A stretch of 64,000 nucleotides of DNA from an uncultured Candidatus Rokubacteria bacterium (GTDB lineage Bacteria > Methylomirabilota > Methylomirabilia > Rokubacteriales > CSP1-6). This document shows, one piece after another, positions 9,099 through 41,342 of this stretch. The stretch covers positions 1 to 64,000 of the forward strand of contig CAVYTA010000005.1 in NCBI GenBank assembly GCA_963771355.1, written 5' to 3'. A program made the position numbers and the translations under genes. Numbering within the stretch: position 1 is the first letter of the stretch; the number at the start of each line of letters is the position of its first letter. The notes under the pieces are model-generated. The model saw nothing but the letters and a program-made list of their open reading frames with translations. It did not search any database and had not been told where the DNA came from.

Positions 9099-9407
9099 CT
9101 ATTTCGGTCCGAACACATCGATGGCGATACGGCCAGCGTTGACCGCGCAGGGCCAGCCAGCATAGAACGCCACGTGGGTGATCAGCCCCTTCAACTCGGT
9201 CTCCGTTACCCCATTGTCGAGTGCCCTCTGCATGTGGCCCCGCATCTCGTCGGTCCGGTAGAGCGCAGCCAGCATGGCCACGGTGATCAGACTACGGTCA
9301 CGCTTGCTGAGGTCGGGATGCTCCCATACGTCGCCGAACAGCACGTCGTCGCGGAGTTGCCCCAGCTTGGGAATGAATTCGTACACCGTTGGTTTGTTCT
9401 GAGGCAT
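9099..9407 (-). CDS. Carboxymuconolactone decarboxylase family protein
   Basis: 'DVLFGDVWE...LSKRDRSLITVA...H..RALDNG...YAGWP'. Confidence 0.9.
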   Translation of the reverse strand: MPQNKPTVYEFIPKLGQLRDDVLFGDVWEHPDLSKRDRSLITVAMLAALYRTDEMRGHMQRALDNGVTETELKGLITHVAFYAGWPCAVNAGRIAIDVFGPK

Positions 9408-24262: not shown

Positions 24263-24468
24263 TCTCAGGGACTAAGCCGTAGCAGTCATTGTGCCGACCA
24301 GCCTCGACGTGGCATCGGGTCATTCCCGACCACGTCGAGGTTGACCGAACGCTACCGAGCCGCATGGTCGGCCACCTGGCCAAGGCCGACCCGGCCTGCG
24401 CCGGGGGCGTGAAGAAGCGAACACCACGCTCGACATGGGTGCCGGTATTTCCATGCCGTCCGGTTGCG

Positions 24469-25312
24469 TCAGCGAAGGAACCGGAGCGCGTTGTCGTGGA
24501 AGATCTTGCGGCGCACGACGTCGTCGAGCCCGCGCTCCCAGGCCCAGCGGCGTTCCTCGTCGTAGTCGTAGGGAATCAGCGGGAAGTCCGAGCCGAAGAG
24601 CACCCGGTCCTGGTGCCGGACGAGGTCCGCATCGGACACGGCGCCGGGATCCGCCCCCGTGTACGGCGTGGCGTGCGGACGTCATGGCCATCGTGGTGTC
24701 GACGTAGAGGTGAGGGTACGCCGGCAGCAGCGCCAGGAACTCCGCACTCTGGAACGCGCCCATGTGGGCGACGCAGACGCGCAGTCGCGGGAAGCGCGCC
24801 ATCAGCCGCGCGAACCGCTCGAACCCCGTGAAGGGATCGCGATACGGCATGGTGCCCACGTGGAGCACGAACACGTGGCCCGCCTCCTCCGCCCGCTCGT
24901 ACACGCCGAACAGCCGCTCGTCGTCGACGTGGAAGCGCTGCACCGAATGGTGGAACTTGAAGCCACGCAGCCCGAGGTCACCGGTGGCCTCGCGCGCGAT
25001 GTCGTCGAGGTCGGGGTCGTCGGGGTGCAGCGTGCCGAGCGCGATCGCCTCCGGGAGCCGGGCCGCCTGCGCGGACAACCACTGATTCAGCGCTCGCGAC
25101 ATGCCGGGCTTGTGGGCATAGGAGAAGAAGCAGAAGCGACGCACCCCGCGGGCTCGTAGCGTATCGGCCACCGCCGACGGCTCGAACGAGTGCCCGGCCG
25201 GCCAGCCGTGATTGGTGAACCAGCGCTCGATCGCCCGGGCGAGCCCCTCGGGGTGAAGGTGGACGTGGACGTCGACGCTGGGGAACGCCGTCAGGGGGAG
25301 CCGGGCTTCCAC
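24469..25312 (-). CDS. Amidohydrolase_2 family protein (one frameshift near 24675)
   Basis: 'VDVHVH', 'GFKFH', 'AHMG'; the C-terminus 'DRVLFGSDFP...KIFHDNALRFLR*' lies in another frame. Confidence 0.85.
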
Positions 25313-28082: not shown

Positions 28083-29622
28083 ATGAGCGTCAACGAGGCG
28101 CTCGGATTTCTCATGCTCCTCAGCATGGTCGCGGTCATCTTCATCGGCTTCCCGATCTCCTTCACGCTGCTGTTCCTCGCCCTGGTGTTCGGCGGATTGG
28201 GATTGGGGTGGAACCAGACCTTCAATCTCGCCTATCTGCAGATCTGGGGCACGATGAAGGACGAGATCTTCCCCGCGGTGCCGCTCTTCATCTTCATGGG
28301 CTTCATGACCGAGCAGGCCGGGCTCATGGAGCGGCTGTTCGGGGCGATGAGGAGCCTGCTCGCCTCGGTGCGCGGCTCGCTCTATCTGGCGGTCATCCTG
28401 ACCGCCACCATCTTCGCCATGGCCACCGGCATCGTCGGCGCGGCGGTGACGGTGCTCGGCATCATGGCCGCCCCGATGATGCTCAAGTCCGGCTACGACG
28501 CGCGCTTGTCGGCCGGCGCGATCGCCGCCGGCGGCACGCTCGGCATCCTGATTCCGCCCAGCATCATGCTGGTGGTGATGGGCCCGGTCATGGGCGTGCC
28601 CGTCAACATGCTGTACTCGGCGGCCTTCGGCCCCGGCTTCTTGCTCGCCTCCTGCTACATCGGCTACACGCTCCTGCGCAGCTTCATCAACCCGAAGCTG
28701 GGGCCGGCCATGACCATGGAGGAGCGCCGGGCCGCCTACGACGACATGACGACGGAGAAGGTCCGCTTTCCCGTGGTCGGTGCTGGGTCTCGTCTGCATG
28801 GTCGCGATGACCTATCTCGGCGCCGACGTCGTCTTGAGTCGGCTGGACGTTCCGCCGCTCACCGTCAGCGTCGGCCCGGTCGTCGGTGTCGGGCGTCGCG
28901 CTGTTGCCCGCGCTGGCCACCGCGGTCCCCTACTTCCGGAACCGCTACTTCCGGGCGCGTGGTGCTGGGCGTCGCGCCGCTGAGCGCGCTCATCGGGTTC
29001 ACGCTCGGCACCATCATCGGCGGGCTGGCGACGCCGACCGAGGCGGCCTCGTGCGGAGCGTTCGGCGCCACCCTGCTGGCTTTGATCTATGGCCGGCTGG
29101 ACTTCAAGTCGGCCAAGAACGCGGCGATGGGCACGATGGTCACCGTCGCCATGGTCCTGTTCTTGGCGGTGGCGTCCAACGTGTTCGGCGTCCGTCTTCA
29201 CGAAGCTGGGCTCGGCCAACCTGATCACGGATTCGCTCCTCGCCCTCCCGGTGGGCGACTGGTGGAAGCTCGCGCTCATCATGGCCATCTTCTTCATCCT
29301 GGGATGGCCGTTCGAATGGCCGGTGATCATCCTCGTCTTTCTGCCGATCGTCCTGCCGGTGATCGAGAAGTTCCAGCTCGGCCTCAACAAGCTCGATTTG
29401 CTGATCTGGGTCGGCACCGTGATCGCGGTCAACATGCAGACGGCGTACTTGAGTCCGCCGGTGGCGATGTCCGCCTACTATCTGCGCAACGTGGTGCCGC
29501 AATGGAGCCTGTCCACCATCTACCGGGGCATGGCCGACTACATGGTGATCCAGGTCTTCGTCCTCATCGTGCTGCTGCTCTTCCCGAAGATCGCCCTGTG
29601 GCTGCCGCACTTCGTGCGGTAG
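28083..29622 (+). CDS. dctM: TRAP transporter large permease (several indels at 28.78-29.19 kb)
   Basis: 'AVPLFIFMG', 'GGTLGILIPPS', 'ATPTEAA', 'QTAYLSPP' spread over frames. Confidence 0.88.
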
Positions 29623-29699: not shown

Positions 29700-30818
29700 T
29701 CAGCGCTTCGCGGGCCAGTAGTGATCAGCCTGGAAGCTGTAGGGCGGGAACATGAAGCGCTTGGCCGGCACGACCTTCGACGCATAGGCGCGCTGCGACT
29801 CGTAGACCTTCTTGAAGAACGGGTTCTTGGCGGATTCGGCCGCCGCGAACTCGTCCCACACCTTGAGAAACGCCTTGTTGATCTCGGGCGGCGTGGTGAG
29901 CAGCTTCACGTTGTGCTTCTCCACCAACTCGGCGATGGCGTCCGCGTTCTGCCGCTGCCACGACGCCCACCAGCGCAGGAAGGTCTCCGACGTGGCCGAC
30001 TGGATCGCCTCCCGCTGCTGGGGCGTCAGGCTGTCCCAGACGTCCTTGTTGATGGCGAGCTCGGCGACCGAGGCGCTCTCGTGCATGCCCGGCGTGTAGT
30101 GGTACTTCCAGACCGTGTGGAGGCCGAGCCGGTGGTCCTCGACGCCGCCGACCCACTCCGCACAGTCGATGGTGCCACGCTCGGCGGCGGGCAGGATCTC
30201 GCCGCCCGGCATGTTGACCACGGCCATCCCCATCTTGGAGTAGAGCTCGGCCACGATGCCGGTCTGGCGGCACTTCATGCCCCGGAAGTCGGCCAGGTCC
30301 TTGATCGGGCGCTTGAACCAGCCCATCGCCTGCGGGCTCGGGGGGATGCTGGGGAACGCGACGAGGTTGAGCTTGAGCTCCTTCTGGTAGAACTCGTTCC
30401 AGAGGTCGAGCCCGCCGCCGTCATAGACCCAGCCGATGAAGTCGATGGCATCCATCCCCGCGATGCCGGCCGGCGTGTTGGCGAAGAGCGTCGCCGCCTT
30501 GTTCTTGCCAAACCACCAGTAGGAGATCCCGTAGGCGCCGTCGATCACCTTCTTGTGGGTCGCGTCGAGGATCTCGAACGGCGGCACGATGGCCCCGCCC
30601 GGCAAGGCGTCGATCTTGAGCTGGCCCGCGGTCAGCTTGTCGACTCGATCGGCAAAGAACTTGAAGGCCTCCTGGGTCGTGGATGACGCCGGCACCGCGG
30701 ACTGCATCTTGAGCACTCGCGGCGGTTGGGCCTGCTGGGCGGGCACTGGTCCGGCGAACGCCACCGTGATCGACACCGCCGCGACCACGGCGGCTCTCGT
30801 GAGGGTAGTAAAGGCCAT
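29700..30818 (-). CDS. dctP: TRAP transporter solute-binding protein
   Basis: Signal peptide, 'QAMGWF', 'FRGMKCR', 'MPGGEILPAAERGTID'. Confidence 0.92.
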   Translation of the reverse strand: MAFTTLTRAAVVAAVSITVAFAGPVPAQQAQPPRVLKMQSAVPASSTTQEAFKFFADRVDKLTAGQLKIDALPGGAIVPPFEILDATHKKVIDGAYGISYWWFGKNKAATLFANTPAGIAGMDAIDFIGWVYDGGGLDLWNEFYQKELKLNLVAFPSIPPSPQAMGWFKRPIKDLADFRGMKCRQTGIVAELYSKMGMAVVNMPGGEILPAAERGTIDCAEWVGGVEDHRLGLHTVWKYHYTPGMHESASVAELAINKDVWDSLTPQQREAIQSATSETFLRWWASWQRQNADAIAELVEKHNVKLLTTPPEINKAFLKVWDEFAAAESAKNPFFKKVYESQRAYASKVVPAKRFMFPPYSFQADHYWPAKR

Positions 30819-31014
30819 TCTTGTCATCCTCCTATTGTGCGAAGCGGGTGTGGGCCCCTTCTTCGGTCTCGCTGGCCGAAAGCTTACCTCGGAGCAGGGG
30901 CTTTCAACCAGAGGGACCGTTCGGGCCCCCGCTGAGGCCGCCCGGCCACACGCTGTGACTCCCCGGGAGGCAGTTTCCAGCCACGCGGACCGATTCTGGT
31001 GTTAGATAGCGGAC

Positions 31015-31728
31015 ATGATTACAGGCCCTATCATCGCCGAGATCGCGGCGCTGGTCGGAGACCCTGCGAGAGCGACCATGGTGTCGGCGCTTCTCGATGG
31101 CCGCGCCCTGACCGCGAGCGAGCTTGCCGGTACGGCGCGAATCACGCCTCAAACCGCCAGCGCTCATCTCGCGAAGCTGACAGAGGCGGGCATGCTTTCG
31201 GTGGTCCGCAATGGCCGGGAGCGCCATTTCCGGCTTGCCTCGCCGACAGTGGCAGACATGATCGACGGGATCGTCGCCGTCGCTCTAGAGAAGAGACCAC
31301 GATACCGCCCCCTATCCCAGCAAGCACGCGCGCTCAGTGCGGCCCGCATTTGCTACGACCACCTTGCGGGCCGCCTCAGCGTTGATCTCACCGATGCTTT
31401 CGTCGCCCGAAAATACATCGTGCTCGACGAGGAGACCGCTGAAATCACGACCGCGGGCACCCGGTTTCTCAGCACATTCGGGATCGAGCTGTCCAGACTA
31501 CGCTCGACCCGCCGGCCCCTTTGCCGACTCTGCCTCGATTGGACCGAACGACGCCCACACATCGCGGGAGCGGTAGGGGCCGCGATCACCAGGCGCTGCT
31601 TCGAACTCGGCTGGATGGAAAGGATGAAGCGCAGCCACGCCGTTATCGTCACCCCGTTGGGGCGGCGGGGCTTCCAGGAGAGCTTCGGCATCGCCGCGTC
31701 CGACCCGGGCGAGCGACGGACACGCTAG
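31015..31728 (+). CDS. ArsR family HTH regulator (CYDHLAG / CLDWTERR subfamily)
   Basis: 'DPARATM...TASELA...TASAHLAKL', 'ARICYDHLAG', 'CLDWTERRPHIAG'. Confidence 0.92.
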   Translation: MITGPIIAEIAALVGDPARATMVSALLDGRALTASELAGTARITPQTASAHLAKLTEAGMLSVVRNGRERHFRLASPTVADMIDGIVAVALEKRPRYRPLSQQARALSAARICYDHLAGRLSVDLTDAFVARKYIVLDEETAEITTAGTRFLSTFGIELSRLRSTRRPLCRLCLDWTERRPHIAGAVGAAITRRCFELGWMERMKRSHAVIVTPLGRRGFQESFGIAASDPGERRTR

Positions 31729-31850
31729 TGGCGGCCGGGGAATGATCGGGTGGGATCGCTCGAGAAGCCAACGCGAGGCCATTCGCTCTCGGAAACGGAT
31801 CCACGGCGACCTGCCGACGTCTTGCCGTCGGTCGCGGAACCCCGGTAGAT

Positions 31851-31870
31851 GCTTCGATCATCGCCGAAGT
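31851..31870. promoter_or_regulatory. Inverted repeat CTTCG-N8-CGAAG, candidate ArsR operator upstream of the AhpD-like gene
   Basis: gCTTCGatcatcgcCGAAGt; a weaker second copy follows at about 31883-31900. Confidence 0.45.
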
Positions 31871-32031
31871 GTTGAGCGCAGCGTTCGACCGTTTCGGATG
31901 TAAGATCGCCGTCAGGATTAACCAGCCCTTTCATCGTGGGTGTGCCGTCTAGATTGGTCCGCGTTGCGGCGCGTGGCGAACGGCTCGTGGCTGGCGTGGG
32001 ACGCCGCATCGCTGACGTGGGGGAGGTGGCC

Positions 32032-32586
32032 ATGCTCGAGGGGAAAACCCGCATTCCGCCGGTCGACGTCGAGACGCTTCCGGACGACCTGCGGGAGGTG
32101 CTCGAGGAACAGCGCAAGCTTCGGGGGGCGCCGCTCTATCCCTACCTCTTCTATGCGCGCAACCCGGCGTACTTCCGCGCCGCGCAGGCGATGTGGACCG
32201 CCCTCCAACAAGAGACGAAGCGCGTGCCCGGTACGCTCAGGGCGCTGCTCAACCGTCGCGTCGCCTGGTGGAACGGCTGCGAGTTCTGACAGGACGCCAA
32301 TGCTGCCGTGGGCAGCAGGCTCGGCGTCTCGACGGAGAAGCTCGAGGCGCTCAACGACTACGCGAAGAGCCCGCTCTTTACCGATGCGGAGAAGGTGGCG
32401 CTCGAATACGCCGACGCGATCACGGACACGCGCCGCGACGTGGACGACGAGCTGTTCGCGCGCGTGCACCGGCACTACGACGACGACACCATCGCGGAGC
32501 TGACGATGATCATCGCGTGGGAGAACGCATCCTCGCGCTTCAACCGGGCGTTCCGCATCCCCTCGCAAGGGTTCTGGAAGCGATGA
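32032..32586 (+). CDS. AhpD/CMD-like alkylhydroperoxidase with CxxU motif, probable selenoprotein (184 aa)
   Basis: RBS GGAGGT then ATG 32032. ORFs 31936-32289 and 32308-32586 share a frame and are separated only by TGA 32287-89 in 'NGCEF*QDAN'. Confidence 0.88.
32293..32328 (+). promoter_or_regulatory. Putative bacterial SECIS element (AhpD-like gene)
   Basis: Upper stem TGCTGCC / GGCAGCA with loop GTG, starting 11 nt after the TGA; lower stem GACGCC / GGCGTC. Confidence 0.75.
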
Positions 32587-32604
32587 TCGGCGGAGGTGCT
32601 GGCG

Positions 32605-33495
32605 TCATGTCCCCCGGCCCCAGAGCCCGCAATAGCGGCGCAGCACGTACGGCAAATTGTTTTCGTATCCAGGCCAGCTCGCGTACTTCGGCAGCTTGAG
32701 CTCTTTCTCGACTCCGTCCCAGCACTTGCCGGCGTGGGCCTCGGCTTTGACGGCGGCGGAGGCGTCCTGCAGGAATGTCAGGAAGTTTTGGACGTCCTCC
32801 TTGGTGCCGAGCCGCCCGCCGGGTCCAGGATGGCCGGGGATCAGCCGGTCCCATTCCATCGCCATGACCTTCTTCAGCGAGTCTTCCCATTCCATCGGAT
32901 ACGAGTCGATCATGCCGCGCCCCGGAAACGAGCCCACCGGAATGAAGTCGACGGCGAAGAGCAGCTTTTCCTTCGGTAGCCGCATGACGATGGAGCTGTC
33001 GGAATGGTTGAGGCCGAGGTAGGTCAGCTCCAGGCGAGTCTCCCCGAGCTTGAGCGTCTTGTCCTTGCGGAACGAGTCGTCGGGCAGGACCGTGTGCGGG
33101 TCCTTCAGCACCTCGAGGCGCTCCTTGGCGCGCTTGTGCGCGACGAAGGTGGCGCCGGCGTCCTTGAAGGGCTTGCCGCCCGCGATGTGGTCGAGGTGGT
33201 GATGGCTGTAGATGACGTACTTGATGGGCTGGTTCGTGACCTTGCGGATCTCGTCGACGTAGGTCGTGACCGCCTGCGGGCGGCCGTAGCCGATGGGGTC
33301 GGTGGCGATCACGCCCTCGGAGGTGACCACGAACATCGACTGGGCGTTGCCGTAGCGGAAGATGTAGACGTTGTCGGTGCCGTCGACCTTGGTGGTCGCG
33401 AACGGCGGCGGTGTCGGCTGCTGCGCCTGGGCGGTCACGAAGAGGCAGGCGGCGGCCAGGGCAGCGCTTACAAGAGCGTAGGACATGCGTGCCAT
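32605..33495 (-). CDS. Secreted MBL-fold metallo-hydrolase
   Basis: Signal peptide; 'YSHHHLDH', 'NHSD', 'IPGH'. Confidence 0.88.
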   Translation of the reverse strand: MARMSYALVSAALAAACLFVTAQAQQPTPPPFATTKVDGTDNVYIFRYGNAQSMFVVTSEGVIATDPIGYGRPQAVTTYVDEIRKVTNQPIKYVIYSHHHLDHIAGGKPFKDAGATFVAHKRAKERLEVLKDPHTVLPDDSFRKDKTLKLGETRLELTYLGLNHSDSSIVMRLPKEKLLFAVDFIPVGSFPGRGMIDSYPMEWEDSLKKVMAMEWDRLIPGHPGPGGRLGTKEDVQNFLTFLQDASAAVKAEAHAGKCWDGVEKELKLPKYASWPGYENNLPYVLRRYCGLWGRGT

Positions 33496-39831: not shown

Positions 39832-41288
39832 ACGCCCCCCTTCCTCTATTCTATAATGGGAGACCGTCACGATGAGTCGGAAGGAGGCTCCGCGAGCGGG
39901 CCTGGTCAAGGCCGCCCTGGCGGGACGCATCACGAATGCGCAAGGCGCCCAGGCCCTCGACGTGTCGCTCGCGGCAGTTTCGGCGACTCAAGGTCGCGCT
40001 ATCGGGAGGCGGGCGTCCGGGGCCTGGTCCATCGGCTGCGCGGGCGCCCCTCGCCGCGCACGGGGGACGTCGAGGTCGCGGGAACGGGTGTGCGAACTGG
40101 TCCAGACCACCTACCGCGATTTCAATGACTGCCACGCCACCGAGAAGCTCCGCGAGGTCGAGGGCCTGGTGGTCAGCCGCAGCACCGTCCGCCGACTCCG
40201 CCGCGGGCCTTGGCGTGGCCGCGAAGCGCCGCCGCCGCCCTCCGCAGCACCGCGCCCGCCGCCCCCGGCGGGCCGCCAGGCGGCAGCCCTCGTCCTCATC
40301 GACGGCAGCGCGTTCGATTGGCTGGGCACCGGCACGCCTCTGCTCCTGCTCGGCGCCATCGACGATGCCACGGGCACCGTCCTCGCCCTCCACTTCCGGC
40401 CCGCCGAGGATCTGCACGGCTATCTCACCCTGCTCCGCGGCCTCGCCGACGCACGCACGGCCTGCCGGTGAGCCTGTACGGCGATCGCCTCGGCGTCTTC
40501 GTCCGCAATGACGCGCACTGGAGCCTCGAGGAGGAACTGCAGGGCGCGCAGCACCCCACCCAGTTCGGCCAGGTGCTCCGGGAGCTCGGCATCGGCTATA
40601 TCGCCGCGCACTCGCCGCAGGCCAAGGGCCGCATCGAACGGCTCTGGGCCACCCTGCAGGATCGCCTCGTCGCCGAACTGCGCCTGCGTGGCCTCCACAC
40701 CGTCGCGGCCGCCGAGGCCTATCCTGCCCGACCTATCTCGTCGACCACAACCGCCGCTTCGCCCAGCCCGCCGGCCGTGGCCGACCCCGCGTGGCGCCGC
40801 CCCCCGCGCGATCTCGCCGATCGTCTCAGCTGCCGCTACCCCCGGCGCGTCGCATGTGACAACACCGTCCGGCTCGGGGCGCGCGTCGTCCAGATCCCCC
40901 GCGGGCCGCACGGCCGCTCGTACGCCGGCTGCCGCGTGACCCTGCACGAATGCCTCGACGGGCGCCTGCTCGTCGACTACCAGGGCCGCCGCCTCGCCAC
41001 TGCGCCCGCGCCCGCGGCGCGACTTCGTCCTGGTCCCCCGCCGCCCACCCCGCCGCCGCGCCTCCCGGAGCCCCCTGCGCCCCGCCCCCCTGGGCCACGC
41101 GGCGCCGCTCGCGGCGCTCGCGGCGCTGGCCCAGCATCTGCGGCGCTCCGCCCGCCCACATCCCTGGCGGCATACCTTCTCCCGCCGCCAACGCGAGCGC
41201 CAACGCGACCTCACCCCGACCGGAGGGAGGACATTCTCACTGAACAGTTATGCGGACATTTCTACTGGACAGCGACACGCCCCCCTTC
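39832..41288 (+). mobile_element. IS element with DDE (rve-type, ISNCY/IS481-like) transposase, frameshifted, flanked by a 12-bp direct repeat
   Basis: Motifs 'IDGS.FDWL', 'AIDDATG', 'LYGDR', 'SPQAKGRIERLWATLQDRL'; ACGCCCCCCTTC at 39832-43 and 41277-88; subterminal repeats at 41229-47 and 41254-72. Confidence 0.88.
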
Positions 41289-41342
41289 GGGCAGTGCCGG
41301 GGTTCGATGCCATCGTCGTCAAGCTAGTCGATAAGGTCCCTC

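Follow-up and report, generated by a model that had tools for sequence, protein, structure and literature searches.

Within a 64,000-nucleotide stretch of Rokubacteria DNA (the window) there is a gene of the AhpD fold, the reading frame of which is interrupted by a single TGA codon that is very likely decoded as selenocysteine (Sec). Taken as a whole, this is probably an intact gene for a CxxU-type AhpD-fold selenoprotein, a thiol-type oxidoreductase that would serve in oxidant defence, acting upon either an oxidant or a partner disulfide. It belongs to a catalogued class of Sec-containing AhpD-fold genes, the prediction of which dates from 2005 (PMC1088965); the preliminary description of the sequence had also stated that AhpD-like CxxU selenoproteins exist. 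The less ordinary part, which a specialist may not have seen, is a probable reversion from Sec to cysteine in relatives, with rewiring of the active site. The features of the locus are collected in Table 1.

Table 1. Features of the predicted selenoprotein gene and its upstream neighbor, in window coordinates.
Feature	Position	Strand	Basis
ArsR/SmtB-type HTH regulator, 303 nt upstream	31015..31728	+	Pfam HTH_20/HTH_5; NF033788 at 53.8 bits against a cut-off of 55
Shine-Dalgarno-like GGAGGT before the ATG	32022..32027	+	Read off the sequence
AhpD/CMD-fold gene, 184 aa, one TGA read through	32032..32586	+	Frame, Pfam, AlphaFold
Cys83 codon, first CxxU residue, likely resolving cysteine	32278..32280	+	Conservation; role proposed
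Phe85 codon, aligned with Tyr50 of PA0269; relatives of Cys type have Tyr	32284..32286	+	
TGA, predicted selenocysteine 86	32287..32289	+	Conservation; alignment to second Cys of CxxC
Lower stem, arms 32292-32298 and 32323-32329; folds here, not conserved	32292..32329	+	
Asn90 codon, aligned with His55 of PA0269; relatives of Cys type have His	32299..32301	+	
Candidate SECIS upper stem-loop; GTG loop 32308-32310 (Val93 codon)	32301..32317	+	Fold and conservation
Glu164 codon; Gln in Cys-type relatives	32521..32523	+	Column comparison

A TGA codon within a conserved gene

The frame contains one internal stop, the TGA at 32287-89 in the context NGCEF-TGA-QDAN, and terminates at a second TGA at 32584-86. 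Reading through the first gives a product of 184 amino acids, as originally proposed, with the CxxU motif C83-E-F-U86. A mechanical ORF list cuts the gene into 31936-32289 and 32308-32586, fragments that share a frame and are parted by this TGA alone; the preliminary description had said as much, and had expected gene callers to split the gene in this manner. Recovering it is an annotation rescue, in that callers divide a conserved selenoprotein gene of abundant soil bacteria. The AhpD fold had been thought to continue on both sides of the TGA, and the Pfam CMD domain (PF02627) indeed matches residues 45-128, crossing it, at 38.6 bits against a gathering cut-off of 23, while the coding score is above zero both 5' (0.22) and 3' (0.33) of the codon.

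Two public DNA runs, out of four, yield contigs that span the site, and these keep TGA where a sequencing error might have revealed TGC or TGT. One of the two contigs has no differences from the window and the other has four, all of them elsewhere; none of the 40 variants listed from a total of 48 falls within 32287-89. The TGA is not a sequencing error. In all four runs, the main contigs disagree with the window at three bases (32379, 32381 and 32385), one of the changes turning Thr117 into Ser, and these differences are either strain variation or assembly error. Six RNA runs contain a fraction of 0.23-0.49 of the sampled words, a figure that is not evidence for expression of this gene.

The search for Sec machinery called for in the preliminary description was successful. 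The genome (5.5 Mb, 99.8% complete) carries tRNA-Sec (C7:111447), selA (C7:113232), selB (C7:114503) and selD (C4:225335). The tRNA scores 69.1 bits against a gathering value of 47, and the three protein genes also lie above their curated cut-offs. TGA is the commonest stop codon of the genome, ending 1738 of 2901 long ORFs, and since it is the main stop, decoding at codon 86 would have to be site-specific recoding rather than another genetic code. This bears upon the possibility that the codon is read as Cys or Trp. Cys-inserting UCA tRNAs occur in some bacteria, and Trp is found at column 86 in 10 of the best 120 database homologues, but the tRNA-Sec is the sole UCA-anticodon tRNA among the 62 tRNAs found here. 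Moreover, the Sec-type signature described below is found in the rows with Trp (9/9 in the tree set), where a gene caller working with a different code most likely translated TGA. Such a reading is very unlikely.

The TGA was expected to be kept in relatives, and it is. A survey of the class gave a match in 145 of 201 genomes, and 46 out of 46 site-spanning matches of at least 55% identity hold exactly one TGA, a count that excludes 341 weaker matches. The genome collection yielded 74 loci, 66 of which cover the site; 62 of these have TGA and four have TGC or TGT, one of the four being a distant paralogue of 31% identity. Loci from 53% up to 97% identical, under labels of several phyla, retain the same TGA codon. 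We then asked which hosts have selA and selB, using 50 host genomes drawn from the 66 site-covering loci (47 TGA-bearing, 3 Cys-bearing). selA is above cut-off in 41/47 TGA-bearing and 1/3 Cys-bearing hosts, and selB in 39/47 and 1/3. Six of the 47 TGA-bearing genomes, all draft bins of 2.3-4.8 Mb, gave no sign of either gene; this may reflect incompleteness or misbinning, yet it counts against the Sec reading. TGA copies that are 80-97% identical (L077, L078, L080, L086, L091-L093, L095, L096, L098, L099, L101, L105, L106, L109) lie in bins titled Actinomycetes, Alpha- and Betaproteobacteria, Verrucomicrobiia, Chloroflexota, Acidobacteriota and others, by lateral transfer or by misbinning.

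If the TGA were instead a true stop or a lesion, the locus would comprise two small genes, a pseudogene or an assembly error. The prevalence of TGA as a stop in this genome is in keeping with that, as is the appearance of frameshifts in other genes of the window. Three genes seem to cross reading frames, at 28083-29622 (+), 24320-25312 (-) and 39872-41334 (-); by eye we take them to be a TRAP-transporter large subunit, an amidohydrolase-like gene and a transposase-like gene, and their frame-crossing suggests indel errors or pseudogenes. Against this, independent contigs agree at the TGA, the codon is held in place over the whole range of identity with both halves conserved, and synonymous codons are frozen within the hairpin that follows it. 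In the structural model, termination at this point would leave Cys83 cut off from the remainder of the catalytic helix (residues 84-96). We find a stop or lesion scarcely credible, and consider SelB-dependent insertion of Sec at codon 86 very likely.

The genome is selenoprotein-rich. CxxU is present in 6 of its 17 CMD matches, and each time a hairpin follows at the same offset, with a sequence that differs from case to case. The five further CxxU CMD/AhpD genes with SECIS-like hairpins are at C5:823978, C6:274454, C6:1251416, C6:2682477 and C7:66320, and in four of the five the His at +4 is absent. A second CMD-domain gene of the window (9123-9371, -) has neither CxxC nor TGA in its matched part. 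A crude genome-wide scan returned 34 candidates with TGA, hairpin and coding potential, some clearly false. Named from their motifs, they presumably include two FdhA-like genes (TGA-HS), peroxiredoxin-like genes (TPG-TGA, TFV-TGA), five or six of UGSC type and several thioredoxin-like UxxC genes; the FdhA-like and peroxiredoxin-like candidates likewise carry TGA and hairpin. A Methylomirabilota bin has been cited as carrying 63 selenoprotein genes.

The hairpin 3' of the TGA

A two-tier hairpin had been described just downstream of the TGA, and both tiers do fold. The upper stem of 7 bp starts 11 nt past the TGA and its loop 18 nt past it, with a folding energy of -10.5 kcal/mol, and the lower stem adds 7 bp beneath. 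The 49-nt fold as a whole has -23.4 kcal/mol (z -2.6), and 3 of 200 shuffles are as good. The bacterial SECIS (bSECIS) model as set out in PMC13188914 has a loop of 3-9 nt with G in one of its first two places, a spacing of 16-37 nt and an MFE of -7.5 or below. The GTG loop, 18-nt spacing and energy found here agree with this model, which bears out the prediction. As a control for chance, hairpins of the same geometry were counted after other TGAs of the genome: they stand behind 79 of 2027 ordinary stops that end long coding ORFs (3.9%), and behind 4810 of 118271 TGAs of all kinds.

The two tiers fare differently in relatives. Five core pairs of the upper stem are kept in all 62 distinct TGA loci. 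In the lower tier, pairing over the same loci amounts to 82.9%, two of the pairs being broken in 26/62 and 21/62, and this level is accounted for by the codons for Asp88 and Gly98. We have therefore rejected the lower tier as part of the SECIS, and only the upper part of the hairpin as first described is retained. Covariation is likewise rejected as support: among the 62 loci it does not exceed that in shuffles (290 of 500 reach the observed value) and there are no compensatory changes, because the hairpin is nearly invariant.

The evidence for a SECIS consists of frozen synonymous sites rather than covariation. The codon for Ala91 is GCT in 70/70 distinct TGA loci, compared with 2.7% genome-wide and 50 of 1450 at the other Ala codons of the same TGA genes. 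Similarly, Ala92 is GCC in 68/69 and Gly94 is GGC in 56/56. These counts do not represent independent events, since the loci are kin, although they cover a range of 53-97% protein identity. By analogy with the known bacterial pathway, SelB with its Sec-tRNA would bind the G-containing loop and deliver Sec at codon 86.

Fold, active site and neighborhood

The AlphaFold model, made with 38 sequences in the alignment, is all helical with a pLDDT of 94. A fold search places AhpD-like peroxidase-related proteins at the top, including 2prr (TM 0.87), 6k40 (0.88) and 2o4d. The CxxU motif stands where the catalytic helix begins, and position 86 aligns with the second Cys of the CxxC motif in 2gmy, 2o4d and 6ohi, in agreement with the CxxC that the preliminary description gave for AhpD/CMD proteins at this place. 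The best family is NCBIfam NF053654 (residues 6-184, E 5e-73), for which the protein scores 244.6 bits against a cut-off of 310; TIGR01926 peroxidase-related enzyme gives 40.4 bits against 81.8, and there is no match to TIGR00778 at E 0.01. The scores lie below the cut-offs of both NF053654 and TIGR01926, and we have filed the protein under neither.

NF053654 (GroundWater_YciW, 'YciW-related (seleno)protein') has in common with our protein the motif NGCEF-U-QD-x-NAAVGS and the SECIS core. It corresponds to a sister clade, the members of which at 55-60% identity (L052, L111, L113, P0109, P0114) pass the cut-off, whereas the protein studied here falls in a separate, well-supported clade that also has a large Cys lineage. 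The fold, CxxU motif and UGA with downstream bSECIS are shared with the catalogued AhpD-like (COG2128/TIGR01926) and CMD-like (PF02627) selenoproteins, a class that these sources give as predicted, without experimental verification (PMC1088965, PMC2398784, PMC13188914 Table 1). Compared with that class, the subfamily here is centered on soil Rokubacteria/Methylomirabilota, and is below the TIGR01926 cut-off. Searches of the literature open without subscription listed nothing that deals with this subfamily or with its loss of His; BSepDB entries or the source of NF053654 could already list it.

PA0269 (2o4d), Atu0492 (2gmy) and M. tuberculosis AhpD have the same fold and CxxC-type helix, but in our protein the second Cys is replaced by Sec. 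The relay of PA0269 comprises Glu36, Cys48, Tyr50, Cys51 and His55, described as essential for AhpD catalysis in the account of PMC3141380, which also gives weak thiol-dependent reduction of H2O2. The corresponding residues here are Ala71, Cys83, Phe85, Sec86 and Asn90, and thus the canonical AhpD relay is not present. The preliminary description had called the product a Sec peroxidase-reductase. The Sec part of that name is well supported by the TGA, the SECIS and the machinery; peroxidase function can be proposed rather than demonstrated, because the Glu, Tyr and His of the AhpD relay are absent from the Sec form. A selenol has a pKa near 5 and is ionised at neutral pH. An already ionised selenol would make the Glu/Tyr/His proton relay dispensable, and Ala71, Phe85 and Asn90 fit with this; if so, the Sec form is an AhpD-fold enzyme working without a His relay.

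We suggest that the Sec86 selenolate would attack a peroxide, a reactive halogen species or an oxidised partner protein, that Cys83 would resolve the intermediate to a selenenylsulfide, and that a cellular reductant would then recycle the enzyme. We regard this cycle as the probable one. The assignment of Sec86 as attacking and Cys83 as resolving is drawn from AhpD chemistry and from conservation: Cys83 is Cys in 75/75 Sec-type rows yet Asp in 7/88 Cys-type rows, and S or Se at position 86 is never lost in full-length rows. In the mammalian enzymes MsrB1 (Sec) and MsrB2/B3 (Cys), different active-site residues are needed, and the Sec form needs a resolving Cys, according to PMC1278935. They provide a precedent both for residue differences between Sec and Cys forms and for a resolving Cys that the Sec form requires, although they are of unrelated fold and are distant paralogues, compared with the pairs of 80-89% identity here.

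The upstream ArsR-type gene is the only conserved neighbor. A homologue lies directly upstream in 32 of the 60 related loci with enough flank, and in six of the 60, among them all three Cys loci, there is instead a divergent LysR-like gene. The largest non-regulator cluster covers 8 of 65 loci, and conserved neighbors among those 65 include no AhpC, thioredoxin or other enzyme, and no halogenase or catabolic gene. We have therefore rejected operon partners. The ArsR-type neighbor is likely the regulator of the AhpD-fold gene, and would control it under stress. Its extended C-terminal region contains three cysteines (CYDHLAG, CRLCLDW) and could be a sensor of oxidants or metals, and the orientation of the regulator gene relative to the selenoprotein gene flips among relatives. 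A promoter and terminator scan of 30800-33000 gave no promoters and one terminator-like site, which is chance level.

A different function for a genuine selenoprotein is possible but clearly less probable, namely a specific small-molecule role as a Bmp8-like reductive dehalogenase, or a detoxifier of electrophiles or metal(loid)s under the ArsR-type regulator. The debrominase Bmp8 (6ohi) has the same CMD fold and CxxC motif (TM 0.78, 23% identity), appears at ranks 4-6 of the fold search and matches in sequence at E 1.7e-7; the fold therefore leaves the substrate unfixed. The missing AhpD relay points the same way. The conserved aromatic and polar residues Y41, W55, N74, R75, W163, N165 and N171 suggest a defined pocket, and a genome with six CxxU paralogues may well use them on different substrates. 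However, the peroxidase-related proteins fit better (TM 0.87-0.88 against 0.78). Bmp8 has a His at +3 for which there is no counterpart here, and PMC7918430 places it in a bromopyrrole gene cluster, a context that our locus does not have. Residue 82 of Bmp8, mutated to Ala in the ligand complex, seems to correspond to the motif's first Cys on a count that assumes a three-residue tag, and this position is replaceable by Asp in our family. The absence of a halogenase or catabolic gene from the conserved neighborhood also counts against this role. We therefore retain oxidant defence as the preferred function.

Cysteine relatives and the direction of exchange

Cys was expected at the TGA column in homologues, and it is present in 103 of the best 120 of 458 database homologues, with 10 Trp and 7 other residues or gaps. 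Cys relatives are 80-89% identical to Sec forms. We compared 75 Sec-type rows (66 TGA loci and nine Trp rows) with 88 Cys rows at the 80% level. Only five of the 184 columns split the two sets: F85/Y, U86/C, N90/H, V93/K and E164/Q. Column 85 is F in 74/75 Sec-type and Y in 85/88 Cys-type rows, column 90 is N in 73/75 and H in 84/88, and column 164 is E in 75/75 and Q in 83/88. Val93 is encoded by the SECIS loop codon, and is Lys in the Cys type. Tyr85 and His90 of the Cys type restore two residues of the relay, and Ala71 remains Ala. The five-column split is best taken as a hypothesis rather than a statistic, since at most two events underlie it.

In a quick tree of 63 of the 165 rows, calculated with columns 85, 86, 90 and 93 removed and 164 kept, the Cys sequences fall into two groups, both nested within the Sec rows and behind branches with support of 97-99. 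We have sought formal proof of the direction with an AU test on 34 of the 165 rows (20 Sec, 12 Cys and two paralogues). Forcing the 20 Sec rows to be monophyletic costs 24.1 log units with a p-AU of 0.073, so that Sec monophyly is not rejected and the test falls short of proof.

Independent support comes from the DNA of Cys genes, which retains traces of the hairpin. From metagenomes we collected 40 distinct Cys-codon loci (50 found, 10 duplicates dropped), with a search pattern that allowed His or Asn at position 90. Ala91 is still GCT in 18/40, compared with 35/900 at other Ala codons; the core of five pairs survives whole in 13/40, and the loop G is present in 1/40. His90 is CAT in 32/39, one base from the AAT of the Sec type. 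The leftover GCT and partial stem represent a decaying SECIS, and the Cys forms are therefore probably Sec-to-Cys revertants; a decaying SECIS remnant is used as the same kind of sign in PMC1794560. For AhpD-like proteins, Table 1 of that paper records two Cys-to-Sec events and no Sec-to-Cys event, unlike the direction favoured by our evidence. Bacterial Sec-to-Cys reversions are described as rare, mostly in FdhA and SelD, in the accounts of PMC13188914 and PMC1794560.

On balance we lean, though not strongly, toward a recent reversion outside FdhA and SelD with its path still visible. A related lineage would have reverted to cysteine and taken Tyr85, His90 and Gln164. The SECIS would have decayed, the Val loop codon would have become Lys, and the changes Phe85 to Tyr, Asn90 to His and Glu164 to Gln would have rebuilt the relay. 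The Sec form would then work without a His relay, and Glu164 may be a selenium-specific partner. One locus, L194, combines Phe85, Asn90 and Gln164 with a Cys codon and is an apparent intermediate; intermediates of this type would order the steps.

It has long been asked why certain enzymes employ selenium (PMC1278935). With a small, well-folded Sec/Cys pair that has five consistent differences, the question becomes testable with few point mutants. In some Cys-type proteins (P0004, P0031, P0036, P0063, P0074, P0078, P0080) and loci (L162, L188, L200) the motif is DxxC instead of CxxC.
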